Source: a virus | Taxonomy: Duplodnaviria > Caudoviricetes | Direction: 5' to 3' (one strand) | IMG/VR virus record: IMGVR_UViG_3300025016_000004 | Length of the DNA: 64,000 nucleotides | Shown: piece by piece, positions 5,019 through 62,222 of the stretch | Layout: the number at the start of each line of letters is the position of its first letter | Numbering within the stretch: position 1 is the first letter of the stretch | Position numbers and translations under genes: made by a program | The notes under the pieces: generated by a model | Databases searched by the model: none | What the model saw: only the letters and a program-made list of their open reading frames with translations | Told to the model about the DNA's origin: nothing

Positions 5019-5200
5019 ATAAATTGAAAAGAAAAGTTGGAGATAAAGTTACTTTGAATGATAAATTTGGTAATGATGAAGGAAAAGAAGCAATAATTAA
5101 CTCAATAGAAACTTCTAAAAATGGTAGAGAGTGGTATCGACTAACTTATAAAGGTAAATTAGACCCATGGAATTGGTGTGATTCAGATTTTAAAAATTAA
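5015..5200 (+). CDS. Small hypothetical protein inside the cca insertion
   Basis: ATG overlaps the endonuclease stop (ATGA). Confidence 0.55.
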   Translation: MNKLKRKVGDKVTLNDKFGNDEGKEAIINSIETSKNGREWYRLTYKGKLDPWNWCDSDFKN

Positions 5201-5201
5201 T

Positions 5202-6086
5202 ATGAAAACTTGGAAAGATATAGCTAAAAAAACAGTACCTAATGAATTTAATACATTCATGAAGGGTAAAGGCAGAAGACCTGATTCTGTAATATTTTCT
5301 GATATTGAAACTGATGTTAAAAGACGTGATTTAACAATCAATGCATTATTCTACGATATTTCAACAAAAGAGATAGTAGATTTAGTTGGTGGCATAAAAG
5401 ACATTAATAATGGTGTTGTAAGGACCGTAGGAGACGCTGGAGAGCGTTTTGGGGAAGATAGACTAAGAATCCTTAGAGCAATTAGATTTGCGGGTAGAAC
5501 GGGTTCTAAATTAGACCCAGCAATTGATAAGTCATTAAGACAAGATAATTCATTAGAAGGTATTTCTGGTGAACGTATTATGGATGAGTTTGTTAAAGGT
5601 ATCAAATCAGCGAAATCAACTAAATATTTTTTATCATTAATTGATAAATATAATTTATTTGATTGGATTTTTAAAGGTATTTCACCAATTAACAAACAAT
5701 TCATTGAGTCTAATGACCCAATATTAGTTATAGCGGTATTACTAAAGGATGTATCATATGATACTATCAGTAAACAATTGAATGCGCTTAAGTATTCATC
5801 CAATCAAATAAAACCAATAGTATTTATGGTAGCTTATTACCAATATTTCTCTAAAGATACTTTTTATACGTTGAAAAAAATGTATAATACTTTTGAGGCA
5901 AATGGTAATACGTTTTTATCATTCATAGAGCTTATGGGTGGTAACACTGAAATTGCACGTAAGTTTATCAATTATCAGCTATCAATTACTGGTGATATGG
6001 TAAAACAAAAATACGGAATGAAAGATGGTCCTGAATTAGGGGCTAAGATAAAAGAGTTAGAAACTCAACAGTTTTTTAAAATATAA
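5202..6086 (+). CDS. cca: CCA-adding enzyme, C-terminal fragment of a split gene
   Basis: GRRPD..DVKRRDLTINALFYD, EDRLRILRAIRF, SGERI motifs. Confidence 0.88.
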   Translation: MKTWKDIAKKTVPNEFNTFMKGKGRRPDSVIFSDIETDVKRRDLTINALFYDISTKEIVDLVGGIKDINNGVVRTVGDAGERFGEDRLRILRAIRFAGRTGSKLDPAIDKSLRQDNSLEGISGERIMDEFVKGIKSAKSTKYFLSLIDKYNLFDWIFKGISPINKQFIESNDPILVIAVLLKDVSYDTISKQLNALKYSSNQIKPIVFMVAYYQYFSKDTFYTLKKMYNTFEANGNTFLSFIELMGGNTEIARKFINYQLSITGDMVKQKYGMKDGPELGAKIKELETQQFFKI

Positions 6087-8514: not shown

Positions 8515-8644
8515 TACGTAAGTTAATGTATTTGGATTTAATTTGCAATATGAAAATGAAAAATACGTTAATTTAATTTCACAATATTTCATTCATAATT
8601 AATTAAAAATCAATTAGTTAAAAAATAATTAAAAAAAAAAGTGC

Positions 8645-8702
8645 AAAAAAACTTGTTTTATATTGAAACATTATGTATATTTGCACTATATATTAATAAC
8701 AA
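8645..8702 (+). promoter_or_regulatory. Bacteroidota sigma-type promoter P1, one of four near-identical copies
   Basis: TTG 8653-55 and TATATTTG 8676-83. Confidence 0.8.
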
Positions 8703-8731
8703 GACGGGTGAATACCCTAAAAAATTAGAAA

Positions 8732-8839
8732 ATGCAAGCAATAAGTATTATACATATTATGAGTTCGATAAATTGGAGACGTAATTCTTCAGTAGTGTCA
8801 GGTATGTCTATACTTAATAGTGGAAATTGGTTTGGTTAA
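8732..8839 (+). CDS. Leader peptide 1: MQAISIIHIMSSINWRRNSSVVSGMSILNSGNWFG
   Basis: Codons 4-20 are all I/S/H/M/N/W/R; contains antiterminator TGTCAGG at 8796-8802. Confidence 0.85.
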   Translation: MQAISIIHIMSSINWRRNSSVVSGMSILNSGNWFG

Positions 8840-8867
8840 CAAATTAATAAAACAAAAAGATAAGATG

Positions 8868-8901
8868 AAAATCCTGACAGAAATGTCAGGATTTTTTTTT
8901 T
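8868..8901 (+). terminator. Attenuator terminator 1
   Basis: AAAATCCTGACA-GAAA-TGTCAGGATTTT plus U-tract. Confidence 0.9.
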
Positions 8902-8906
8902 AATAT

Positions 8907-9002
8907 GGTATCTGTAGCAGAATTGGTAAGTAGTACCCTTATCGGGGAACATGCACTAGATTGTGGCTCTAGAGGATGCGGATTCGAGTTCCGTCTGATA
9001 CC
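8907..9002 (+). tRNA. trnH: tRNA-His(GTG) with a ~20-nt insertion in the D-loop
   Basis: G-1:C73; stem CTAGA/TCTAG; loop TT-GTG-GC. Confidence 0.8.
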
Positions 9003-9035
9003 CAAAGGTTTCAATTGTACCTTAAACAATTAAAT

Positions 9036-9110
9036 GGTGTGCGTAGCTTAACTGGTTAAAGCACTAGATTGTGAGTCTAGGGGATGTGATTTCGAATATC
9101 ATCGTACACC
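9036..9110 (+). tRNA. trnH: tRNA-His(GTG)
   Basis: Canonical cloverleaf with G-1. Confidence 0.9.
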
Positions 9111-9116
9111 CAAAAT

Positions 9117-9195
9117 GGTCGTGGTCGGGATGACCCCACTTCAGAGGTGAAGTGAATACATGTTTGGTTAGGGTTCGAGTCCCTTTCACTGACCC
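9117..9195 (+). pseudogene. Degenerate tRNA-like element, anticodon ambiguous (TCA or CAG)
   Basis: T-arm AGGG-TTCGAGT-CCCT; GGTC/GACC ends; remainder irregular. Confidence 0.4.
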
Positions 9196-9218
9196 AAGTA
9201 ATTGAGAGTAATATCAAT

Positions 9219-9234
9219 GTTCATTGACATATTG
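9219..9234 (+). promoter_or_regulatory. boxA-like motif
   Basis: GTTCATTGACATATTG; similar copies at 57863 and 59712. Confidence 0.45.
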
Positions 9235-9276
9235 GAAGTAAATTAACGCAACTCATAATCAAGGGGTTGCGTACAC

Positions 9277-9345
9277 ACAGGTCAGGCTATGGTAGCCAAA
9301 CGCTCTCCAAAAGCGTAGGACAGAATTCGATTTTCTGGGCTTGTG
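9277..9345 (+). tRNA. trnW: tRNA-Trp(CCA) with a short D-arm
   Basis: ACGCT-CTCCAAA-AGCGT; T-arm present. Confidence 0.75.
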
Positions 9346-9440
9346 CGAAGTGAGTGTCGTCCACGAGATGTACGCCCTAACATTCATTGATTTGTTCGGT
9401 GACAGCCTCGGAATAGGATGTTGAGTAGGGAACGACAAAT

Positions 9441-9513
9441 ACAGATATAGTGTCAATGGCTAACACAACGGGTTCCAACCCCGTAAATCTGGGTTCGAAT
9501 CCTAGTATCTGTG
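9441..9513 (+). tRNA. trnW: tRNA-Trp(CCA)
   Basis: Canonical cloverleaf. Confidence 0.9.
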
Positions 9514-9518
9514 CAAAT

Positions 9519-9600
9519 ACGGATATAGTTCAATGATAGAATGGCCCCAGCGAAGGGGTTGATGGGTTCCTAGGTTTTGGTTTGATTCCCCCTGTCCGTG
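9519..9600 (+). pseudogene. Degenerate tRNA (CGA-like loop)
   Basis: Acceptor and D arms intact; 6-nt anticodon loop; broken T-arm. Confidence 0.5.
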
Positions 9601-9606
9601 CAAATT

Positions 9607-9674
9607 GTGATGATTCTCAGATAGCTATATGGAGAGACATATTTGAATATGGTGGTTCGAAACCACACATCGCA
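9607..9674 (+). pseudogene. Degenerate tRNA-like element
   Basis: GTGG-TTCGAAA-CCAC T-arm; shrunken anticodon arm. Confidence 0.4.
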
Positions 9675-9751
9675 TCAACTACTAACTTATACCGAAAAGT
9701 ATGTAAAGTATCTTGTATATAATATTTACTATACAAATATGTGTTAGACTA

Positions 9752-9841
9752 GGAGAGGTGGCAGAGTGGTCGAATGCGGCAGTCTTGAAAACTGTTGACC
9801 CCTTTCGGGGTCCGTGGGTTCGAATCCCACCCTCTCCACCA
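9752..9841 (+). tRNA. trnS: tRNA-Ser(TGA) with encoded CCA
   Basis: Type II cloverleaf. Confidence 0.92.
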
Positions 9842-9887
9842 GATGTACGTTTTTTGTACTTTACATTATTTTCCCATATTTATATAC

Positions 9888-10541
9888 ATGGGAAGAAAAC
9901 AAAAAAAGTATCATTATATTTATAAGACCGTAAATACATTGAGCGGTAGATATTACATTGGGATGCATTCAACTGATGATTTGAATGATGGTTATCTTGG
10001 TAGTGGAATTAGATTGAGAAGAGCAATTAATAAGCATGGCAAGGAAAATTTTAAAAGAGAAATATTGGAATTTTGTGAATCAAGAGAGTTATTAAAAGAG
10101 CGAGAAATTGAAATTGTTAATTTGAATGAGATAGCCAAGGTTGGATGTATGAATTTGAAAGTTGGTGGTTATGGTGGGTTTATTAGTGATGAACACCAGA
10201 AATTTCGTTCAGAATGTGCAAATAAAGCTTTAAAAGAAAAAAGGGAAAGGGATAAAGACTTCAATAAAGAATGGTTAAAAAAGATGAAAGAGGGGGTTCA
10301 AAAAGCTATGGATAGTGGTAAAATGACTAACATTAAAGATAATTATGATTGGACTGGTAAAACTCATAAAGAAGAAACGAAAAAGAAAATGAGCAAACCT
10401 AAGAATAAAGGTGATAGTAACTCCCAATTTGGGTCTTGTTGGATAACTAATGAAAAAATGAATAAGAAAATAAATCGAGATGACGTTATACCAGAAGGTT
10501 GGCGATTAGGTCGAGTAATGAAAAGTATCATTGGAAGGTGA
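9888..10541 (+). CDS. GIY-YIG (Seg-like) homing endonuclease with NUMOD3
   Basis: YHYIYKT...YYIGMH...GYLGSG; true start at ATG 9888. Confidence 0.85.
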   Translation: MGRKQKKYHYIYKTVNTLSGRYYIGMHSTDDLNDGYLGSGIRLRRAINKHGKENFKREILEFCESRELLKEREIEIVNLNEIAKVGCMNLKVGGYGGFISDEHQKFRSECANKALKEKRERDKDFNKEWLKKMKEGVQKAMDSGKMTNIKDNYDWTGKTHKEETKKKMSKPKNKGDSNSQFGSCWITNEKMNKKINRDDVIPEGWRLGRVMKSIIGR

Positions 10542-10582
10542 TACCTAAACAGTGTGATAATATCGATTAAAGCGCACAGTTT

Positions 10583-10655
10583 TGTAATATAGCTCAGCGG
10601 TCAGAGCAGCCTCCTGATGTGGGGAAAGTCGATGGTTCGAATCCATCTATTACAA
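10583..10655 (+). tRNA. trnI: tRNA-Ile(GAT)
   Basis: Canonical cloverleaf. Confidence 0.88.
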
Positions 10656-10732
10656 CAAACCATCGCAAGATATAGTTGCAACATTTATTGATAATGGTCT
10701 AGAACGTTATCTTTAGATATATCAAACGATGG

Positions 10733-10805
10733 TCCGATGTAGCTCAGTGGTTAGAGCATCCCCCTCAGAAGGGGAAGGTCGGGGGTTCAAATCCCTCTGT
10801 CGGAA
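10733..10805 (+). tRNA. Type I tRNA with anticodon CAG on an Ile/Met-like body
   Basis: TCCCC-CTCAGAA-GGGGA; 5-nt variable loop. Confidence 0.8.
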
Positions 10806-10868
10806 CAAAGTATCATCGGAAGGTGATACCTAAACAGTGTGATAATTACGTATAAAGCGCACAGTTTT

Positions 10869-10940
10869 TGCGAGATAACTCAGAGAGTAGAGTGGCCCCG
10901 TGCAAGGGGAGAGTCGGGGGTTCAAGTCCCTCTCTCGCTA
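10869..10940 (+). pseudogene. Degenerate tRNA (TGC-like loop, no G3:U70)
   Basis: Anticodon loop one base short. Confidence 0.55.
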
Positions 10941-10947
10941 CTAATAT

Positions 10948-11031
10948 TGCGGTGTAGTCAGTAGATGGAAGCTTGCGAGGCTCATAACCTCGTGCCGAAA
11001 GGCCCCACGGGTTCGAGTCCCGTTGCCGCTA
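10948..11031 (+). tRNA. trnM: tRNA-Met(CAT), initiator-like, with an extra variable-arm hairpin
   Basis: 1:72 mismatch; CGAGG-CTCATAA-CCTCG; GCC-GAAA-GGC variable arm. Confidence 0.85.
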
Positions 11032-11037
11032 CTAAAT

Positions 11038-11070
11038 TGCGTTAAAGTGTAAAGGTTGCATTTCGACCAA
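11038..11070 (+). pseudogene. 5' half of a tRNA
   Basis: TGCGTTA-AA-GTGT-AAAGGTT-GCAT. Confidence 0.5.
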
Positions 11071-11130
11071 TAACGTTAAATAATATGAACTTTTACATAA
11101 TTCTTTATATTTATATAAAAAGTTTAAATT

Positions 11131-11760
11131 ATGGAATGTTTAGTGTGCGAGTTAAAATTGGGTAAGGGTAGAAGAAAATTCTGTTCAGATGATTGTAGAA
11201 AACAAAATAGAATTTTACAATATAAAAAAACTGGTAATCCTAATTCTTATTCAAGACAAGTGTCTAAACATAGGTTTCGTAAATTTAATCTTATTGAGTT
11301 ACGTAATAATAAAGGGTGTGAAGAATGTGGTTATATTAAAAATATAAGTGCGTTAGATTTTCATCACTTAGTTCCAAAAGAAAAAGATTTTACGTTAGAT
11401 GCTAGAAATTTAGCTAATAGGGGTTGGGAAGAAATTTTAGTCGAATTTAGTAAATGTAAAATTCTTTGTGCTAACTGCCATAGAGAAGAACATAACCCAG
11501 ATTTAAATTTTAAGGATAGGATTAAATTTGATGAAATTGGTGAAAAAATAAAAAAAGAATCTAAATGTGTGGAATGTAATGTGAAAATTCATAATACCGC
11601 AAGTAGATGTAAAAAATGTTTTGACATGTCAAGACGAAAAAATGATAGACCAAGTAATGTAATATTGCTTGAAGATATTAAAGAATTAGGGTATAGTGGT
11701 ACTGGTAGAAAATATGGTGTTAGTGATAATACTATAAGAAAATGGGTTAAAAACTCATAA
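11131..11760 (+). CDS. HNH homing endonuclease with zinc ribbons and a C-terminal HTH
   Basis: LDFHH...KCKILCANCHREEH; stop lies inside the tRNA anticodon loop. Confidence 0.88.
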   Translation: MECLVCELKLGKGRRKFCSDDCRKQNRILQYKKTGNPNSYSRQVSKHRFRKFNLIELRNNKGCEECGYIKNISALDFHHLVPKEKDFTLDARNLANRGWEEILVEFSKCKILCANCHREEHNPDLNFKDRIKFDEIGEKIKKESKCVECNVKIHNTASRCKKCFDMSRRKNDRPSNVILLEDIKELGYSGTGRKYGVSDNTIRKWVKNS

Positions 11761-11794
11761 ACTCTACGGGGTGGTTCGAATCCACGATACGCTA
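11754..11794 (+). pseudogene. 3' half of tRNA-Met(CAT)
   Basis: CTCATAA...GTGG-TTCGAAT-CCAC...CGCTA. Confidence 0.65.
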
Positions 11795-11892
11795 CTTTGG
11801 AAGTTTAGTAAGTTTTTCCTTAAAAACAACTTACAAATTATATATCGATAAGTAATTGCCTTGATGGTTGGCTGTAAATAAATTATCATTAT

Positions 11893-11979
11893 GGGTGAGT
11901 AGCTCAGTGGGCCAGAGCGGTTGATTGTTAATCAAAGGGCCTTTATAGGTTTACGTGGGTTCGAATCCCACCTTGCCCT
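11893..11979 (+). tRNA. trnN: tRNA-Asn(GTT) with a long variable arm
   Basis: GTTGA-TTGTTAA-TCAAA; 18-nt variable region. Confidence 0.8.
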
Positions 11980-12167
11980 CAAATCTTAATAATTATGGAA
12001 AAATGTAGTTAAAGAATTGGTTCAAAATTTAAGAGCCAGTGGGATTAACGTCACATATTATGATAATCCAAGTAAAGAAAAGATTGAACGTATTAATAAA
12101 CGTTTGGTAGAATTAAGAAAAAGAAATTCCTTTTAGTCCCTGAAGAAATTCAAACTTTAAGGTGCAA

Positions 12168-12193
12168 TCTTCAATAGCTCAGTTGGTTAGAGC
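12168..12193 (+). pseudogene. 5' fragment of a tRNA (Asn-type)
   Basis: TCTTCAA-TA-GCTC-AGTTGGTTA-GAGC. Confidence 0.6.
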
Positions 12194-12199
12194 TAAAAT

Positions 12200-12271
12200 T
12201 CTTCTCTCGTATAAAGGTTATTACGGGTGACTGTTAATCACTTTATCTAGGTTCGAGTCCTAGGGGAAGAG
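12200..12271 (+). tRNA. trnN: tRNA-Asn(GTT)
   Basis: Canonical cloverleaf with G73. Confidence 0.88.
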
Positions 12272-12345
12272 AGTTGTCGATATTAATCCACTTCCACGTA
12301 GTGACAACTGGTAATAGATGAATTCATCTAGCTAGGAGGTTAATA
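12272..12345 (+). ncRNA. HDV-like (theta-type) self-cleaving ribozyme candidate at the tRNA-Asn 3' end
   Basis: P1 AGTTGTC/GACAACT, P2 TATTAATC/GGTTAATA, P3 ACT/AGT, L3 TCCACGT, P1.1 GG, P4 TAGATG/CATCTA, J4/2 GCTA. Confidence 0.72.
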
Positions 12346-12588
12346 AACGTTCATTAAGTATCTTGGTGATTATATCAAGATACTTTTGGGATGTCTTAGG
12401 TTTAACATAAGTTTGGCTACTTGTATCGATAATACATAAATCAATCTTTAAATCATGACAGGCTTTTGATTTAGATATATCATTCTCTTGAATCTTTTGT
12501 AATTTATTGTTACCATATATAGGTTCATAATGAAAGATACCATTGTTTTAGAGTTGTTAAATTCTTCTTGGGTATATAATGGTTTCAT
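12332..12588 (-). pseudogene. Internally deleted PD-(D/E)xK-type endonuclease remnant
   Basis: MKPLYTQEEF... joined out of frame to GIFHYEPIYG..KLQKIQEND. Confidence 0.55.
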
Positions 12589-12632
12589 AAAGTTATTTAT
12601 TTATAAATATGTTAACATTTATAAAAGACGTT

Positions 12633-12652
12633 TTCGAGTCCTAGGGGAAGAG
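12633..12652 (+). repeat. 20-bp duplication of the tRNA-Asn 3' end (other copy at 12252-12271)
   Basis: TTCGAGTCCTAGGGGAAGAG. Confidence 0.85.
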
Positions 12653-12658
12653 CAAAAT

Positions 12659-12746
12659 GGAAGGGTGACAGAGTGGTAATTGTGCCAGTTTGCTAAACTG
12701 AGGCTGGGCGTGAAAACCCACGAGGGTTCGATTCCCTCTCCTTCCG
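12659..12746 (+). tRNA. trnS: tRNA-Ser(GCT)
   Basis: Type II cloverleaf with G73. Confidence 0.92.
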
Positions 12747-12989
12747 CAATTATAATGGAAAATATTCTACTAAAAACACGTTATAGTGGAAAATATTTGT
12801 AAATTATTATAAATTTTACCGTTATAACGGAAAAAATTCTATAAAAAGTGCATTATAATGGTAAAAAATGCAAATTATTGCACTTAAATACCATTATAAC
12901 AGTATAAAGTGCAACTTATTGCACTTAACGATGTATAATATCTCATTCATAGATATTAATATTATAAAATAGTGAATGTCATTCAAATT

Positions 12990-13063
12990 GCCTCCGTAGC
13001 ACAACTGAATAGTGCAACACCCTTCTAAGGTGTCGGTTATAGGTTTGAATCCTATCGGGGGTA
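12990..13063 (+). tRNA. trnR: tRNA-Arg(TCT)
   Basis: Canonical cloverleaf. Confidence 0.9.
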
Positions 13064-13129
13064 CAAATTATGTTTCATAGTCGAATAGTAAGTTTTAACC
13101 TGTCATAGGTGATATGAAACATAACAAAA

Positions 13130-13206
13130 TGGGGTATAACCAGCATGCCTGATACGCATGACCAAGGTAGCGGTTGAAAACGAGGGTTCGAATCCCTCCG
13201 CCCCAA
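13130..13206 (+). ncRNA. Non-canonical tRNA-like RNA, no D-arm, anticodon GAT
   Basis: CATGC-CTGATAC-GCATG; long 3' segment containing TAGCGG; intact T-arm. Confidence 0.65.
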
Positions 13207-13212
13207 CAAAAT

Positions 13213-13301
13213 GCTGGTGTAGCGGTGGGAGCTTATATCTCCTATACCCGTAGAGGTTCTTGAGATAGCATCAAACAAGGGTTCGAACCCCTTCTCCAGT
13301 A
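13213..13301 (+). ncRNA. tRNA-like RNA with an expanded ~20-nt anticodon loop
   Basis: TATCTC/GAGATA stem; T-arm AAGGG-TTCGAAC-CCCTT. Confidence 0.5.
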
Positions 13302-13306
13302 CAAAC

Positions 13307-13383
13307 GGGTCCATATCGGCTCTGGCTCATAACCAGTTGAAACCGTAATTGGTCACATGTGGGTTCGATTCCCTCTGGGCCCA
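13307..13383 (+). ncRNA. Non-canonical tRNA-like RNA, no D-arm, anticodon CAT
   Basis: CTGG-CTCATAA-CCAG; CCGTAATTGG segment; T-arm. Confidence 0.65.
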
Positions 13384-13425
13384 CTTTATTAAATTTGTTG
13401 ATATTTATATAAAAACAATATAAAT

Positions 13426-22931: not shown

Positions 22932-24291
22932 GTGAACTACCCACCCACGCCAGAGGCGATGGGTTGGGCTTCTGATTTCACAGACTTGTGCTTCTTTATA
23001 GAAGTCTTATTTGAGTCTCCATCAGTGTTATCGAGCATCCCACCCGATATTATTTTTAAACCTTCTTTGAGAATATTTCTACTTGCATTTACATCTCTGT
23101 CGTGTATTACACCGCACGAGTTACAAGTCCATTCTCTATCAGAAAGTTTTAAATTTTGATTTATCCAACCACAGTCTCCACAAGTCTTCGAGCTAGGATA
23201 GAAACGATTAACTTTTACAAGTTCTTTTCCATACCAATCACACTTATATTGAAGTAATGTAACAAAATTACCCCAACTTGCATCGGCAATATGTTTTGAT
23301 AATTTGTGGTTTTTAATCATACCTTTTACATTTAAGTCCTCAACTGATATTAAATCATATTGATTAACCAGTTTATGTGAAACCTTATGTAAAGTGTCTA
23401 ATCTACAACTTGCAATTTTCTCGTGAATTTTAGCAACTTTGAGTTTTTGTTTTTCAAACCCATTACTACCTTTTTGTTTACGAGAAAGATGTTGTTGTGC
23501 TTTTTTTAATTGTTTTGCATATTTTTTTGTATATCTATTATTTTTGAATTTAGCATTATCAGAAGTAATTACAAAATCCTTTAAACCTAAATCTATTCCA
23601 ACTTGTTTATTTGTTTTAGGTAATTCTTTATTCTGTTGTTCTGTAAATATTGAAACATAATATTTACCTGTTGGTGTTTTGGTAATTATCATTTTACCAA
23701 TCTTACCTTTGACTTCTCTGTGAAGTTTAACTTTAATACCTTCTTTAAATTTTGGTATATTAATTTTATCTCCTTCTATACTACCAAATTGAGGTATGGT
23801 AAAAGTATTTTTATGTTTACGAGATTTAAACTTTGGGAATTGTGCATTACCTCTAAAAAAGTTTAAAAAAGCTGTATCTAAAGAGCGTAGAGCGAATTGT
23901 AAAGTTTGACTATTAACTTCTTTCAACCACATAGTCTTTTCTTCTTTTTTAAGTTTTGTCAAAGTGGCAGCTTGTTTGTAATAATTGTCAGACTTTTTAT
24001 CCGCTTGGTATTGTTCTTTGCGTTCATTTAGAAAATGGTTATACACCCAACGAGAGTGACCAAAGTGTTGATTTAATAGCACTTCTTGCTCATTTGTTGG
24101 AAAAAGACGAAACTTATATGTCTTATTAATCATTTTCATACCTATTATACATCAAAATTTATGCCAAAATATAGTTTTATGTAAATTTGTCATACTTAGC
24201 CGTTCAATATATTTTAAGCCAAGGTTAATCATACCTTTGTCGCTTACATCCCATCCACGCTTTGCGATGAATGGGTTTTACGCTCCTTTTT
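22932..24291 (-). mobile_element. tnpB-only IS200/IS605 (IS1341-like) element
   Basis: Left end after TTTAT, right end GTAGTTCAC, subterminal hairpins. Confidence 0.88.
22937..24139 (-). CDS. tnpB: TnpB RNA-guided nuclease, apparently intact
   Basis: HTH, GIDLG, VEDL, zinc finger, DRDVNA. Confidence 0.95.
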   Translation of the reverse strand: MKMINKTYKFRLFPTNEQEVLLNQHFGHSRWVYNHFLNERKEQYQADKKSDNYYKQAATLTKLKKEEKTMWLKEVNSQTLQFALRSLDTAFLNFFRGNAQFPKFKSRKHKNTFTIPQFGSIEGDKINIPKFKEGIKVKLHREVKGKIGKMIITKTPTGKYYVSIFTEQQNKELPKTNKQVGIDLGLKDFVITSDNAKFKNNRYTKKYAKQLKKAQQHLSRKQKGSNGFEKQKLKVAKIHEKIASCRLDTLHKVSHKLVNQYDLISVEDLNVKGMIKNHKLSKHIADASWGNFVTLLQYKCDWYGKELVKVNRFYPSSKTCGDCGWINQNLKLSDREWTCNSCGVIHDRDVNASRNILKEGLKIISGGMLDNTDGDSNKTSIKKHKSVKSEAQPIASGVGG

Positions 24292-43500: not shown

Positions 43501-43557
43501 AAAAAAACTTGTTTTTTATTTAAACAATTACTATATTTGCACATATATATTAACAAG
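43501..43557 (+). promoter_or_regulatory. Promoter P2
   Basis: TTG 43509-11; TATATTTG 43532-39. Confidence 0.8.
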
Positions 43558-43626
43558 AGATAGGATAATACATCTGGACAAACCCAAATGGGAAAGGATT
43601 GAATCTGAACAGTCTCTTAAATAAAA

Positions 43627-43710
43627 ATGAAAATGAAAACTTTAGTAACTTTATTATCTTTATGTCTGTTGGTCGTGTGTACTGACACATCGAGTTATGT
43701 AATTACTTAA
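43627..43710 (+). CDS. Leader peptide 2: MKMKTLVTLLSLCLLVVCTDTSSYVIT
   Basis: 11 of codons 6-18 are L/V/C; antiterminator ACATCGAGTT at 43687-96. Confidence 0.85.
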   Translation: MKMKTLVTLLSLCLLVVCTDTSSYVIT

Positions 43711-43742
43711 AGGATTTATTTATATATTTTTTAAATTGTTAT

Positions 43743-43775
43743 AAAAGCTCGATGTTAACGCATCGAGCTTTTTTA
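43743..43775 (+). terminator. Attenuator terminator 2
   Basis: AAAAGCTCGATG-TTAACG-CATCGAGCTTTTTT. Confidence 0.9.
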
Positions 43776-46580: not shown

Positions 46581-46638
46581 CAAAAAAATTTGTTTTATAT
46601 TGAAACATTTACTATATTTGCACTATATATTAATAACG
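46581..46638 (+). promoter_or_regulatory. Promoter P3
   Basis: TTTG 46589-92; TATATTTG 46613-20. Confidence 0.8.
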
Positions 46639-46668
46639 GTATTAATAAAGTACCACAAAATAAAAGTA

Positions 46669-46764
46669 ATGAGAAACTTAATTAACATATTTGAAAACGA
46701 ATTTTTCGCAGCCGAGGCAGATTTTAGCTTGGGTAGGATGAGAATTGTCAAAAATGAAAGTTAA
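46669..46764 (+). CDS. Leader peptide 3: MRNLINIFENEFFAAEADFSLGRMRIVKNES
   Basis: 11 of codons 8-19 are F/E/A/D; antiterminator GGATGAGA at 46736-43. Confidence 0.85.
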   Translation: MRNLINIFENEFFAAEADFSLGRMRIVKNES

Positions 46765-46796
46765 GTTATTTAAAAAATAATAAAAACAATAAGACA

Positions 46797-46829
46797 AAAT
46801 CTCATCCAAATCGGATGAGATTTTTTTTT
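46797..46829 (+). terminator. Attenuator terminator 3
   Basis: AAAATCTCATCC-AAATC-GGATGAGATTTTTTTTT. Confidence 0.9.
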
Positions 46830-49765: not shown

Positions 49766-50884
49766 CTAATGGCTCACGTTAGCGTACAAAGGGTTGTCCC
49801 TAACCCCGAAATTCTTTATGTTATATGCAGCGTTTACATCTCTATCAATTGAATTACCGCACTTATCACAATCATAAGTTCTATCTAAAAGTTTTAAATC
49901 TTTCTTGTGGTTTCCACAGTTAGAACATACTTTACTGCTTGGTTCAAACCTTCCAATTACAACAAGATTTTTACCTTGCCATTCAGTCTTATATTCAAGC
50001 ATTGTTCTTAATTGTCGCCAACCCATATCAGATATTGCTTTAGCTAAATTATGGTTCTTAACCATATTACTAACAGACAAATCTTCCAATACAATTGTAT
50101 TATAAGATTTAACTAATTCAGTAGATATTTTGTGCAAGTAATCAGTCCTTTGGTTACGAATTTTTTCTTGCAGTAATGCTACTTTTAATTTTTGTTTTTC
50201 TCTATTTATTGAGTCTTTCTGTTTTCTTGCAAGGCTTCTTTGTTCAACTCTTAATCTTCTTTGTTGTGATTTAAAGAAGTTTTTATTTTCATATACTACA
50301 CCATCAGAAGTAATAGCTAAATCTTTAATTCCAAAATCAATACCAACAGATGTTTCAGTTTTAATTGATTTTTTCTTTGGTTTTTCGGTTTGAGTATCAA
50401 CCAATATTGAAACAAAATATTTACCAGTTACTGTTTTAGTTAATGTAACTCTTTTAGGTAAACCTTTAAATTCTCTGTGGTAATCAATAGCAACTTCTTT
50501 TAATTTAGGTAGCTTTAGTATTCCCTCTTTAAACGATATTTCAAATCCTTGTGGAAACGTAATTGACTGTTTGGAATACTTATTTTTAAATTTAGGAAAT
50601 TGACCTTTACCCTTAAAAAAGTTTTGATATGCTGTATCTAAATTGATTATGCTATGTTGTAATACTTGACTTGGACATTCTTTAATGTAGTCAAATTCTT
50701 TTCTCAATTCTGGAAGTTGTTTTATTAAATCATATTTAGATATTGATTTTTTATTTGAGGCATACGCAACAGTCTTGGTTTCCAACCCCAAATTATAGAC
50801 AAGTCTATTTACACCAAAATACCTTTGTAGTTGGTCTTTTTGGTCATCTGTTGGAAATATTCTGTATTTGTATCCTTTAAGCAT
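49766..50884 (-). CDS. tnpB: TnpB, apparently intact
   Basis: GIDFG, LEDL, zinc finger, DRDVNAA. Confidence 0.95.
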   Translation of the reverse strand: MLKGYKYRIFPTDDQKDQLQRYFGVNRLVYNLGLETKTVAYASNKKSISKYDLIKQLPELRKEFDYIKECPSQVLQHSIINLDTAYQNFFKGKGQFPKFKNKYSKQSITFPQGFEISFKEGILKLPKLKEVAIDYHREFKGLPKRVTLTKTVTGKYFVSILVDTQTEKPKKKSIKTETSVGIDFGIKDLAITSDGVVYENKNFFKSQQRRLRVEQRSLARKQKDSINREKQKLKVALLQEKIRNQRTDYLHKISTELVKSYNTIVLEDLSVSNMVKNHNLAKAISDMGWRQLRTMLEYKTEWQGKNLVVIGRFEPSSKVCSNCGNHKKDLKLLDRTYDCDKCGNSIDRDVNAAYNIKNFGVRDNPLYANVSH

Positions 50885-57394: not shown

Positions 57395-57862
57395 AATAAT
57401 AATATTATGACAACTATGACAATTCTAAAAAACTTCCATATGGGAACCATAAAATGTTTTCCATGGAAAATAAATTTCTTGCACATGTAGATACCAAACG
57501 TATGAATTGGTATCTAGATAGGGATTTAGCTATCATGTTAAACGAATATAGATACCAATCATTTTTAAAAGGGGCTATCCAAATCACCTGGTTCACCAGC
57601 CGAAGAGAGAAACTTCAAGCCCTTTTTATTTTTTAAATGCTGAAAATCAAGTAGTTAAAAAAAGTTTAAAATTTTTTGTTATTTTACTTGTTTTTTAAAT
57701 ATATATTATGTACATTTGCAGAGTAAAAATAGGAAAGTTATAATGAGGCGAAATCATTATAAAACAACTTTAAGTGAGGCTCTTAAAACTTTTTTAAAAA
57801 AAATCGCAAAAAACTTGTTTAATTAAAAAATAAGTTGTATATTTGCACAAGAATTAAAATAC

Positions 57863-57878
57863 GTTCATTAAAATATTG
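57863..57878 (+). promoter_or_regulatory. boxA-like motif downstream of tandem promoters
   Basis: GTTCATTAAAATATTG; TATATTTG at ~57838. Confidence 0.45.
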
Positions 57879-57886
57879 AAAATAAT

Positions 57887-58706
57887 GGGGTGCTTATGCT
57901 CCTTCCTTCGGGAAAAGATAAACCTAGTGATAGGTATAAAGTGATGTCCAAACAAGGCATTGCGTTGAGGGCTTTCGGGTCAACAATCTGTGTAAGCATA
58001 TTAACTACGAACAAGGGTCAATGGCTGAATGGCTGAGATTAACGAGTTCACTCCCTAGCTTCGGGGAGTTGAGATAGAAATATCAATAGGCGGTTAGTAG
58101 ATTTCGGTTGAAACGTGTAAAAAGCGGATAGGCTGATTTCATCATGATTTGTTATGGAATGTTTAATAATGATGCTTCATTATAATCTTGGGAAACCAAG
58201 CGTTATATTAAGTTAAGTTAATTTGTAAATCTAAGTAATGAAGAAATGATGTGGTGGTAAAACACTGCAACGGGGTGTCGTAAACTAAACTGGTCAAAAG
58301 CCAGCACGTTTGTCAACTGCTAGACACATCCTGTAAGAGAGAGCATCGCTAATCAATTAGGTGGGGCGATAGCCCAACCACTTTTATGTTAAAAAAGCAA
58401 AGATAAGTAAAAGTTCTAGCGGTCACGGATACAAAATTAAGTTATCCCACTGAAATATGTGGGCAGTTATTAACCTCACAAGGGTAACGCTGAAACGGAG
58501 ACTAGGTATCGTTAGTAGGAGGGTCGCACCTTCTCATCCTCGCAAGGGAGCTAGGTAGTGAAATTGGTTTATATCAATCTGTGGTAAAAGAGTTTGCAGT
58601 CACTCCAAGACTGTCTTAATGATGCCTACCAAGTGGAAACATGAGGTGTGTGAAATAGGGAAACCGAAAGCAAAAGGTATTACAAGGGCCCAACACTCAA
58701 GCCTTT
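57887..58706 (+). ncRNA. Giant structured ncRNA, GOLLD-like
   Basis: ~820 nt with no ORF, GC-richer than its flanks, many GNRA/UUCG hairpins, adjacent to tRNA-like genes. Confidence 0.62.
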
Positions 58707-58708
58707 AA

Positions 58709-58780
58709 CGGAGATATCGTCTAATTTGAAGACACTTCCTATTGCTGGAAGGTAATGTAGTATCAAATCTACCATTCCGA
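58709..58780 (+). pseudogene. Degenerate tRNA
   Basis: CTTCC/GGAAG stem; aberrant loop and T-loop. Confidence 0.5.
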
Positions 58781-58844
58781 CTATAAAATGAATATGTGAA
58801 TACATGACGATATGAGTTGCCTACCACACATATTCATTTTGAAA

Positions 58845-58934
58845 GGCGCAGTAGCTCAATTGATAGAGCGTGTTGAAACATCCGATAAACGGTTGAAGTA
58901 GGCAAGGTTGGTGGTTTGAGTCCATCTTGTACCA
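58845..58934 (+). ncRNA. tRNA-like RNA with an expanded anticodon loop
   Basis: Canonical acceptor, D and T arms; CCG-ATAAA-CGG insert. Confidence 0.55.
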
Positions 58935-59015
58935 CTAAATGGGGAGTGTAGCCAGACCAGCATTGAGTTGGTATCTGTAACCAAGCTGAAAATGCAATTG
59001 TGAATGTTGCCACTT

Positions 59016-59168
59016 CCATAAAATCATGGAAAGCAAATGAAAAGAATTTTCATGTCTGAATGTGGGACGCATTTCGGACAATAAACAAAAACAAGTGGAG
59101 GCGTTGTCGTTGGGCAAGTCAATGAAACTTGAAGCCCATCCATCACGAAGTGTGGATGGGTAGTTCAC
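59016..59168 (+). mobile_element. Orphan IS200/IS605 right end with an omega-RNA-like region
   Basis: Near-identical to 56570-56669; ends in GTAGTTCAC. Confidence 0.75.
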
Positions 59169-59429: not shown

Positions 59430-59487
59430 AAAAAAACTTGTTTTATATTAAAACATTTACTATATTTGCACTATATATTAATAACAA
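59430..59487 (+). promoter_or_regulatory. Promoter P4
   Basis: TTG 59438-40; TATATTTG 59461-68. Confidence 0.8.
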
Positions 59488-59511
59488 GGGTAAATCCCAA
59501 AATAAGAAATA

Positions 59512-59610
59512 ATGAGAAATTATACAACATATACGAAACAGTATCAACCGAAGGGCGGGAAGTCCCAAGGTCAACTGAGTATACGTTGTAGTGACATAAC
59601 AGAATTCTAA
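59512..59610 (+). CDS. Leader peptide 4: MRNYTTYTKQYQPKGGKSQGQLSIRCSDITEF
   Basis: Codons 4-17 are all Y/T/K/Q/P/G; antiterminator TCAACTGAG at 59571-79. Confidence 0.85.
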   Translation: MRNYTTYTKQYQPKGGKSQGQLSIRCSDITEF

Positions 59611-59640
59611 TGTAGAATATAGTTATATAAACAATATATA

Positions 59641-59678
59641 AAAACCCAGTTGATAAAACAATTTCAACTGGGTTTTTT
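59641..59678 (+). terminator. Attenuator terminator 4
   Basis: AAAACCCAGTTGA-loop-TCAACTGGGTTTTTT. Confidence 0.9.
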
Positions 59679-61223: not shown

Positions 61224-61346
61224 CCGAGCCATTTGGATTGTGAAACTTGTGGTACAAGATATTGTGACCAAAGTTGTTAAATTATAAGGTATGATTTGGT
61301 TATTACATTAATATTTCGTATCTTTGTAGTAAATTAAAAATAAGAT

Positions 61347-62222
61347 ATGAGAGAATTAGTGGTAACACCATCGATAACAGATAGAAGTTCACCTTCATTA
61401 CAAATGTACTTCAATGACATTCAATCAATTAAGATTTTAACACCTGAAGAAGAGTATGAAATTGCGGTAAAAGCGTTTGATGGTGATGAAAAATCTAAAG
61501 AATTATTAGTAAAACATAACCTAAGATTTGTAATAAGTGTTGCAAAACAATATCAAATATATGGGATTAAATTTGAAGATTTAATCAATGAGGGTAATAT
61601 AGGGTTGCTTAAAGCGTCAGAAAAGTTTGACCCATCAAGAGGTTTTAAATTTATATCATATGCTGTATGGTGGATTAGACAAACAATAATAGCACACATA
61701 CAAGCAAACAGTAAAATTGTTAGACCACCACTTGGTAAATATATTAAATCATTTAAAATGAAAAAAGAATATACCTTGTTGGAGCAAAAGTTAGAAAGAA
61801 CTCCAGCTTACAATGAATTGGTAGACCATTTAGGTAATGAGTTTAGTGATTCTGAAATAGAGTTTTTTATTGATAATTTAAGTAATAAGGTACAATCATT
61901 AGACGCACCTTTAGGAGAAGATGATGATTCTATAACGTTATTAGATTTGTTAAAAGATTCAAATGATTTCGATTCAAATGACTTAGTTAAGTTAGGTGAT
62001 TCTGACATTAGAACTGAAGTATTACTTAGTAGGTTAAATGATGAAGAGAAAACCATATTAATATTATTATATGGCTTAGATGGTAGAGAACCAGTAAGTA
62101 TCAAAGAAGTATCAAATATGTTAGAACTTAGCAAAGCAAGAATTGCTTTGATTAGAGATAAGTCTTTACGTAAATTAAAATTCCAATTGCTTCATAAGGG
62201 TAATTGGTTGAAAGAAATATGA
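61347..62222 (+). CDS. RNA polymerase sigma-70 factor (RpoD-like, no region 1.1)
   Basis: HNLRFVISVAKQY; DLINEGNIGL.KA.EKFDP.RGFKFISYAVWWIRQ; SLDAP; region 4. Confidence 0.93.
   Translation: MRELVVTPSITDRSSPSLQMYFNDIQSIKILTPEEEYEIAVKAFDGDEKSKELLVKHNLRFVISVAKQYQIYGIKFEDLINEGNIGLLKASEKFDPSRGFKFISYAVWWIRQTIIAHIQANSKIVRPPLGKYIKSFKMKKEYTLLEQKLERTPAYNELVDHLGNEFSDSEIEFFIDNLSNKVQSLDAPLGEDDDSITLLDLLKDSNDFDSNDLVKLGDSDIRTEVLLSRLNDEEKTILILLYGLDGREPVSIKEVSNMLELSKARIALIRDKSLRKLKFQLLHKGNWLKEI

Follow-up and report, generated by a model that had tools for sequence, protein, structure and literature searches.

A putative leader-peptide attenuator gating a phage tRNA array, and three paralogous cassettes whose leaders match their own arrays

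The segment at positions 8645–8901 of the window (the whole 64,000-nucleotide stretch of DNA analyzed here) is very probably a transcription attenuator of the ribosome-mediated (leader-peptide) kind, placed in control of a phage tRNA array, and its sequence suggests that tRNA synthesis would thereby be driven by demand. The window, taken to come from an uncultured giant phage, is phage-like, with 30% G+C and 33–35 tRNA genes, all of which lie on the + strand. The parts of attenuator 1, as the segment is called below, are as follows:

8645–8686, + strand: promoter with an A-tract, −33 TTG at 8653–8655 and −7 TATATTTG at 8676–8683; Bacteroidota-type; the block is conserved in relatives
8706–8717, + strand: short 5′ stem-loop that opens the leader RNA; present in every predicted fold
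8732–8839, + strand: leader ORF of 35 codons, ATG at 8732 and TAA at 8837–8839; kept in 12 distinct orthologues
8741–8791, + strand: regulatory codon run, codons 4–20 (17 codons), for I, S, H, M, N, W and R only
8741–8763, + strand: candidate region 1 (anti-antiterminator strand), predicted to pair with 8797–8816
8772–8793, + strand: small in-ORF hairpin over the codons N-W-R-R-N-S; all pairs kept
8796–8802, + strand: region 2, the antiterminator strand TGTCAGG; a copy of the terminator 3′ arm, complementary to CCTGACA at 8873–8879
8868–8901, + strand: intrinsic terminator with 5′ arm 8868–8879 (region 3), loop 8880–8883 and 3′ arm 8884–8895 (region 4)

The sequence-only reading of this DNA had proposed a leader-peptide attenuator with its leader at 8732–8839, a run of 17 consecutive codons restricted to amino acids of the tRNAs that follow, and pairing of TGTCAGG with CCTGACA in the terminator. 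These elements were all recovered: the ORF runs from ATG to TAA through 35 codons, codons 4–20 are exactly those listed, and 8796–8802 is complementary to 8873–8879 in the terminator 5′ arm. The attenuator reading as such is supported by sequence features that are replicated in paralogues and orthologues. The label of sensor and the direction of regulation are suggested for attenuator 1 by the sequence, and what it would sense is the amino-acid set of its array, taken together, rather than seven amino acids by seven independent sensors.

Transcription of attenuator 1 probably starts at about 8692. The leader ORF is preceded by an A-rich stretch and lacks a Shine-Dalgarno sequence. Alignment of the 12 orthologues showed that the pairing of the 5′ stem-loop is retained through changes on both sides in three pairs, and all four cassette types described below have an equivalent 5′ hairpin of different sequence, which is possibly a stabiliser or a protein site. 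The terminator has a stem of 12–13 bp, a GAAA loop, ten T residues (8892–8901) and a predicted stability of about −15.5 kcal/mol. It ends 6 nt short of the first tRNA gene (8908), and in most cassettes the T-run ends 2–17 nt before the first tRNA. The heptamer TGTCAGG occurs only three times in the 64 kb, always in attenuator 1 (8796–8802, 8884–8890 and, as its complement CCTGACA, 8873–8879). The amino-acid set of array 1 makes up 39% of the residues in the phage's own long ORFs, and none of the 8,772 windows of 34 residues drawn from these ORFs reaches 26/34 in-set residues or a 13/13 in-set stretch. The architecture of attenuator 1 is not the product of chance.

The promoter follows the pattern TTG-N17-21-TAnnTTTG, a type that we take to be that of the Bacteroidota and that suggests a host of this phylum in aquifer or lake water. 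In the whole window this motif was found 32 times on the + strand versus 4 times on the − strand, and a generic sigma-70 scan (TTGACA/TATAAT) gave no excess over shuffled sequences. The 40-nt promoter block has five copies in the window versus none in shuffles, and four of the five (8647, 43503, 46584 and 59432) lead into an ORF of 27–35 codons, a strong hairpin with a T-run, and a tRNA array. The fifth copy (57809–57848) has no leader ORF and drives a non-coding, G+C-richer stretch of about 1.3 kb (57809–59150), which includes a partial match to the GOLLD RNA (RF02032) at 58270–58704 (59.5 bits, E 1.6e-14; sub-threshold, the gathering score being 150) and, 3′ of it, a tRNA-like element at 58845–58934. 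This fifth copy is kept just upstream of attenuator 5 in two relatives (G003 and G002). A sigma-70 family gene with regions 1.2, 2, 3 and 4 (61296–62222) lies within tRNA array 5 and has a TTG/TAnnTTTG promoter of its own; its product could be the reader of the conserved phage promoters.

The tRNA genes downstream of attenuator 1, those of the array that it would control and two more distant Arg genes, are as follows:

8908–13390, + strand: tRNA array 1 as a whole, with His x2, Trp, Ser-TGA, Ile-GAT, Leu-CAG, CAT, Asn x2, Ser-GCT, Arg-TCT and tRNA-like genes
8908–9002, + strand: His-GTG, first copy, with a 23-nt insertion (hairpin) in the D-loop; Rfam 49 bits
9037–9110, + strand: His-GTG, second copy
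9441, + strand: Trp-CCA
9752, 10583, 10733 and 10948, + strand: Ser-TGA, Ile-GAT, Leu-CAG and CAT, respectively
Within the array, + strand: Asn-GTT, two copies
12659 and 12990, + strand: Ser-GCT and Arg-TCT
13130–13390, + strand: three atypical tRNA-like genes with anticodon loops read as GAT, TAT and CAT (Ile-GAT, Ile-TAT, CAT)
17181 and 18375, + strand: Arg-CCT and Arg-ACG, 8–10 kb downstream, past protein genes

The tRNA list of the sequence-only reading thus held in part. The two His, Trp-CCA, Ser-TGA and Ser-GCT, Ile, CAT, the two Asn and Arg-TCT are in place; Arg-CCT and Arg-ACG exist at the distance of 8–10 kb given above; the second Trp is weakly supported (9519–9600 at 22.9 bits, or 9277–9346 by relaxed ARAGORN); Arg-TCG was confirmed by none of the tools applied; and Leu-CAG had been omitted. 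It counts against the model that Arg-ACG, which is needed for the CGT codon of the run, lies 9.5 kb downstream and may be on another transcript. The tRNA genes are often paired, a canonical copy standing beside a partner with an insertion or an odd arm layout (for example 8908–9002, 9519–9600, 10869–10940 and 13130–13390), and several of the odd partners were detected by Rfam or relaxed ARAGORN only. A further tRNA outside the four controlled arrays (2187–2259, Rfam 55.6 bits) was read by ARAGORN as ‘His (atg)’, with an abnormally placed anticodon. A homologue of the CCA-adding enzyme/poly(A) polymerase family is encoded at 5178–6086, 2.5 kb upstream of attenuator 1, and fits a phage-encoded set for tRNA maturation. 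The window also carries two IS605-type TnpB ORFs on the − strand (22937–24139 and 49766–50884).

Between the terminator and about 12.4 kb no other consensus promoter was found in array 1, the only candidate being a weak promoter-like match at 12386. Since the interval from 8.9 to 12.4 kb has no further consensus promoter and the T-run abuts the first tRNA, expression of the array 1 tRNAs needs read-through of the terminator. An aquifer metatranscriptome contained an exact 155-nt contig (8953–9107) across both His tRNAs, and a second RNA run gave a contig from a relative, corresponding to 8561–8801, whose first base lies ahead of the predicted transcription start. Both contigs are of low depth, possibly represent DNA carry-over, have no 3′ end at the terminator and are uninformative on expression or termination.

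In the mechanism that we propose, transcription would start at the conserved TTG/TAnnTTTG promoter and the 35-codon leader would be translated as RNA polymerase proceeds. When an aminoacyl-tRNA for codons 4 to ~18 (Ile, Ser, His, Met, Asn, Trp or Arg) is scarce, the ribosome would stall upstream of 8796–8802, and region 2, left free, would pair with the terminator 5′ arm at 8873–8879 once that arm emerges. With the terminator hairpin blocked, the polymerase would enter the array, from whose transcript RNase P and other processing enzymes would free the tRNAs. When decoding is fast, the ribosome would stand over or past region 2, which would be occluded by ribosomes or sequestered in a helix with region 1 or in a local hairpin; with region 2 unavailable, the terminator would form and a leader RNA of ~205 nt would be released. 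That the leader is translated, that ribosomes stall in it and that stalling favours read-through is what we infer, as is the physiological trigger, for which the candidates are the loss of host tRNAs in infection, anticodon nucleases and a mismatch between the host tRNAs and the AT-rich codon usage of the phage.

Predicted folds were compared with this scheme, as far as thermodynamic folding, which is crude for AU-rich RNA, can represent it. The full-length leader folds into the terminator form, with region 2 paired onto the codon run in most cassettes. When the 5′ part of the ORF was masked, to mimic stalled ribosomes, and the transcript ended before the 3′ arm, the 2:3 antiterminator formed in nine of the nine cassettes tested. 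Stalling in attenuator 1 was modeled with a ribosome footprint of 28 nt slid along the nascent transcript: positions at codons 2–18 allow the 2:3 helix, those at codons 19–29 block it, and those at codons 30–36, the stop included, allow it again. The model appears to explain the ON state of attenuator 1 well. The reverse logic, in which stalling would lead to termination, was rejected, as a ribosome stalled at 15 of the 17 codons of the run would leave region 2 exposed.

The OFF state is less cleanly reproduced. The stop codon of the leader lies 35 nt past region 2, so that a ribosome waiting there leaves region 2 uncovered and the model again predicts the 2:3 helix (codons 30–36), which goes against a clean OFF state, and the truncated-transcript fold of attenuator 1 favours 2:3 even without a ribosome. 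At equilibrium the terminator, at −15.5 to −17.9 kcal/mol, outweighs the 7-bp antiterminator, at −10.5 to −12.4 kcal/mol; as the terminator is more stable by 5 kcal/mol, the switch must be kinetic. According to the modeling, what keeps the switch OFF must be trailing ribosomes, a near-isoenergetic 1:2 helix or local conserved hairpins. The candidate 1:2 helix (8741–8763/8797–8816, −11.2 kcal/mol) is part of the full-length minimum-free-energy fold, and both of its strands are almost invariant. The conserved hairpins at 8772–8793 and ~8799–8814 are invariant and are candidate pause or anti-antiterminator elements. Invariance of the 8772–8793 hairpin extends to the third codon positions, and this element may be an RNA polymerase pause hairpin.

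Three paralogous cassettes of the window repeat the arrangement in front of other tRNA sets:

43501–43774, + strand: attenuator 2, with leader 43627–43710 (rich in Leu, Val and Cys), region 2 CATCGAG at 43689–43695 and terminator 43743–43774
From 43777, + strand: array 2, tRNA-Cys, then Val, Leu, Val, Leu, Leu
46582–46829, + strand: attenuator 4, with leader 46669–46764 (run of Phe, Glu, Ala and Asp), region 2 GGATGAGA at 46736–46743 and terminator 46796–46829
From 46839, + strand: array 4, tRNA-Asp, then Asp, Phe, Glu, Phe, Glu, Ala-TGC (49519)
59430–59678, + strand: attenuator 5, with leader 59512–59610 (run of Tyr, Thr, Lys, Gln, Pro and Gly), region 2 TCAACTG at 59571–59577 and terminator 59640–59678
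From 59737, + strand: array 5, tRNA-Pro, then Lys, Thr, Tyr, Gln, (Glu/Ser?), Thr, Gly

The four cassettes (at 8.6, 43.5, 46.6 and 59.4 kb) share one promoter block, and their leaders, terminators and tRNA sets are all distinct. Each leader is matched to the array behind it: the I/S/H/M/N/W/R leader precedes His-Trp-Ser-Ile-Met-Asn-Arg, the L/V/C leader precedes Cys-Val-Leu, the F/E/A/D leader precedes Asp-Phe-Glu-Ala and the Y/T/K/Q/P/G leader precedes Pro-Lys-Thr-Tyr-Gln-Gly. The best window of 13 codons holds 13, 11, 11 and 13 residues, respectively, from the set of its own array and at most 8 from that of any other, giving a clear diagonal in the 4 × 4 matrix, and the own-array counts were reached by 0 of ~9,000 windows of equal length per cassette taken from the 40 long ORFs of the phage. 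This diagonal was seen again in 20 instances outside the present genome, and the match of leader to array holds in every instance with at least four tRNAs on the contig. In all four cassettes, the upstream segment that pairs best with the terminator 5′ arm falls within the leader ORF, directly 3′ of the codon run; among 500 shuffles per cassette, 16, 0, 1 and 35 paired with the 5′ arm at least as well (attenuators 1, 2, 4 and 5). Each amino acid is represented by 1–4 codons, fewer than in the his or leu leaders, which speaks against the model. All four leaders terminate in TAA. Leader 2 resembles a signal peptide.

Arrays 1, 2, 4 and 5 jointly span 20/20 amino acids. Since read-through yields exactly those tRNAs whose codons the leader probes, the arrangement would constitute a negative-feedback homeostat of tRNA supply, and we lean slightly toward the view that the four attenuators together form such a homeostat of the tRNA pool, block by block, each leader sampling the decoding speed of the codons of its own array and all 20 amino acids being covered. 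The attenuators might instead respond to host amino-acid starvation or general translation stress and not to the size of the tRNA pool, in which case the match between leader and tRNAs would boost the decoding of the phage's frequent codons late in infection, without feedback. To a stalled ribosome an uncharged tRNA looks the same as an absent one, charging is what classical attenuators respond to, and the evidence from the architecture is equally compatible with this explanation. Extra tRNA, however, does not cure amino-acid starvation, so that the partition of 20 amino acids among four leaders and arrays would be left without a selective reason, whereas it is just what feedback on the supply of each array predicts. 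We consider starvation sensing unlikely.

The cassette was found in three related giant phages and on about 25 contigs assembled from marine, lake and aquifer metagenomes. One relative is represented by two fragments from one sample (G001, 197 kb, and G002, 110 kb), which are probably parts of one genome. Another (G003, 360 kb, with terminal repeats) has four cassettes in unchanged order, and the divergent third (G006, 340 kb, with terminal repeats) has at least three. Pattern scans yielded 33 distinct cassettes for comparison; a loose promoter pattern, which in viral contigs returned mostly unrelated Bacteroidota-type promoters without tRNAs, was replaced by the −7/start-site block. Among 50,697 phage records no match was obtained by megablast with the array or by blastn with the leader, and tblastn with the sigma factor embedded in the array gave only relatives of <40% identity; a tractable relative was not found in these searches of cultured phages. 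G003, G006 and several metagenome relatives have a conserved ORF of ~60 codons between the terminator and the first tRNA (L075 in G003, at attenuator 1 and tRNA-His), which is absent from this window. In three contigs (L112, L114 and L118), ARAGORN reported tRNAs with anticodon TTA (‘Stop’) inside attenuator-controlled arrays.

In the orthologues of attenuator 1, alignment columns 4–21 are at least 90% in-set with the residues permuted: the residues after H-I are N-S-I-M, G-N-S-M, S-S-I-I or M-S-S-I. In G006, the residues T/Y/Q/K/P/G are reordered as well. Such permutation within a set fits selection on the identity of the codons, or of the tRNAs they sample, rather than on peptide chemistry. 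Third codon positions are slightly more variable than first and second ones in orthologous leaders, the small difference indicating that an RNA-level constraint is mixed with the coding constraint, a point against the model.

The 2:3 helix is maintained by compensatory change. In attenuator 1, GTCAGG:CCTGAC passes through a G.U intermediate, GTCAGG:CTTGAC (L106 and L119), to GTCAAG:CTTGAC (G003 and L110), and cassettes 2 and 4 of G006 have unrelated stems (AATCGGA:TCCGATT and GTTGAGT:ACTCAAC) with the ORF copies changed to match. This covariation was assessed by per-sequence duplex energies, column counting having been dropped because in the CTTGAC-type orthologues each strand sits one column out of register. 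The leader of G006 cassette 2 pairs with its own arm at −9.3 kcal/mol versus about −4.3 with orthologous arms, and that of cassette 4 at −8.9 versus −3.4 to −6.4 kcal/mol. Over the 33 cassettes the cognate ORF/arm duplex averaged −10.5 kcal/mol versus −5.8 kcal/mol across types, and for 25 of the 33 leaders no foreign arm pairs as well as their own. The independent events behind these figures are few (about two for attenuator 1 plus the G006 replacements), many of the orthologues being closely related. The terminator stem, for its part, shows both-side compensatory changes in seven pairs among the orthologues.

These data also bear on the view that the ORFs are functional micro-proteins, or the ~205-nt transcripts small RNAs, whose terminator merely ends the gene, the tRNAs being expressed by constitutive leak-through or from unrecognised promoters. 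The peptides are conserved past the codon run (for example S-G-M-S-I-L and S-L-G-R-M-R-I-V-K-N-E-S), leader 2 has its signal-peptide-like character, and there is a precedent in Sinorhizobium, where trans activity has been reported both for leader peptides and for the RNAs that terminated attenuators release (PMC6614838, PMC7298713). Such a function would leave unexplained, however, why each ORF spells the amino acids of its own array and permutes them within the set, and why each holds a copy of a terminator arm that is kept through compensatory change; moreover, the conserved C-terminal parts overlap region 2 and the conserved hairpins. We regard it as very unlikely that this is all the cassettes do, and a trans role of the leader peptide or RNA could be additional to attenuation rather than an alternative.

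Even less probability is given to antitermination by a factor other than the ribosome, such as a phage protein or a tRNA bound to the leader in a T-box-like or protein-dependent manner, with the ORF being incidental. The conserved 5′ stem-loop at the head of every leader would suit such a factor, and the sigma-70 gene in array 5 shows that phage-specific transcription control exists. Against this, no T-box, specifier loop or other known riboregulator was matched, and an incidental ORF would lose its start, frame, stop and in-set composition, all of which are kept in ~30 diverged cassettes. The T-box search gave no match at gathering level in the whole window and none at E ≤1 in 8600–9800, and the identity of attenuator 1 as a T-box riboswitch was rejected, no Stem I, specifier or T-box match having been found there. 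The curated Rfam leader families (His, Trp, Thr, Leu and Phe) returned only tRNA matches and sub-threshold chance matches from the terminator hairpin.

Several known systems resemble the proposed attenuators. Enterobacteria have multivalent leaders in ilvGMEDA (Ile/Leu/Val) and thr (Thr/Ile), as well as the trp and his leaders. The phage cassettes share with these a promoter-proximal short ORF, a regulatory codon run, a presumed coupling of transcription to translation and an antiterminator strand 3′ of the run that competes for the terminator 5′ arm, and they come closest to the ilv and thr leaders in their multi-amino-acid content. Unlike the enterobacterial leaders, they precede tRNA genes instead of biosynthetic enzymes, address up to 7–8 amino acids per leader, have the stop codon well past region 2, show no homology to known leaders by sequence or Rfam model, and belong to a phage setting in which the promoters are Bacteroidota-type and a Shine-Dalgarno sequence is absent. 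In Escherichia coli, the pheST leader pheM is a leader-peptide attenuator of aminoacyl-tRNA synthetase genes. A His-codon leader lies upstream of hisS paralogues in bacilli (PMC2965389). As in the pheST and hisS leaders, a component of decoding would here be attenuated for the same amino acid, with supply feedback on charged tRNA; those leaders serve one synthetase and one amino acid, whereas the phage ones serve tRNA genes, in blocks, and many amino acids.

The T-box recognizes uncharged tRNA directly, by means of a specifier codon and the T-box sequence, and needs no translation. Like it, the phage leader RNA would read the status of tRNA, switch between terminator and antiterminator and raise the supply of charged tRNA; unlike in the T-box, an ORF is the putative sensor. 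In known systems the control of tRNA genes acts on the promoter (growth-rate and stringent control). To our knowledge, the targets of leader-peptide attenuation are amino-acid biosynthesis and transport genes and a few synthetase genes, whereas the genes regulated here are tRNAs with embedded homing endonucleases. Array 1 harbours ORFs for GIY-YIG/NUMOD3 and HNH endonucleases (9795–10541 and 11131–11760). Its interspersion of tRNA genes with homing endonucleases (GIY-YIG, HNH) is like that of the T4 tRNA cluster with segB and of other virus tRNA clusters, and, in contrast to the present arrays, the available portions of the sources describe no leader-peptide attenuator in front of those (PMC2330249, PMC6409571). 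A full-text literature search, in which few subscription journals were represented, found no published leader-peptide attenuator before tRNA genes.

If the homeostat exists, it would allow the phage to replace tRNAs on demand when those of the host are degraded, cleaved by anticodon nucleases or mismatched to its codons, and these would be the first tRNA genes known to be under feedback from how well their own products serve translation. Here a virus appears to have placed the supply of tRNA itself under feedback, combining up to eight amino acids in a single leader. Such a loop suggests why giant phages hold near-complete tRNA sets and how needless synthesis is avoided, and it gives a way into the old problem of why phages carry tRNAs. 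The sequences also point to ribosome-mediated attenuation that works with Bacteroidota-type promoters and initiation without Shine-Dalgarno sequences, and to compact modular parts of ~250 nt from which the decoding speed of a chosen group of codons could be read out. Members of the family are common in metagenomes from aquifers, lakes and the sea, so that a cultivable phage–host pair may turn up.
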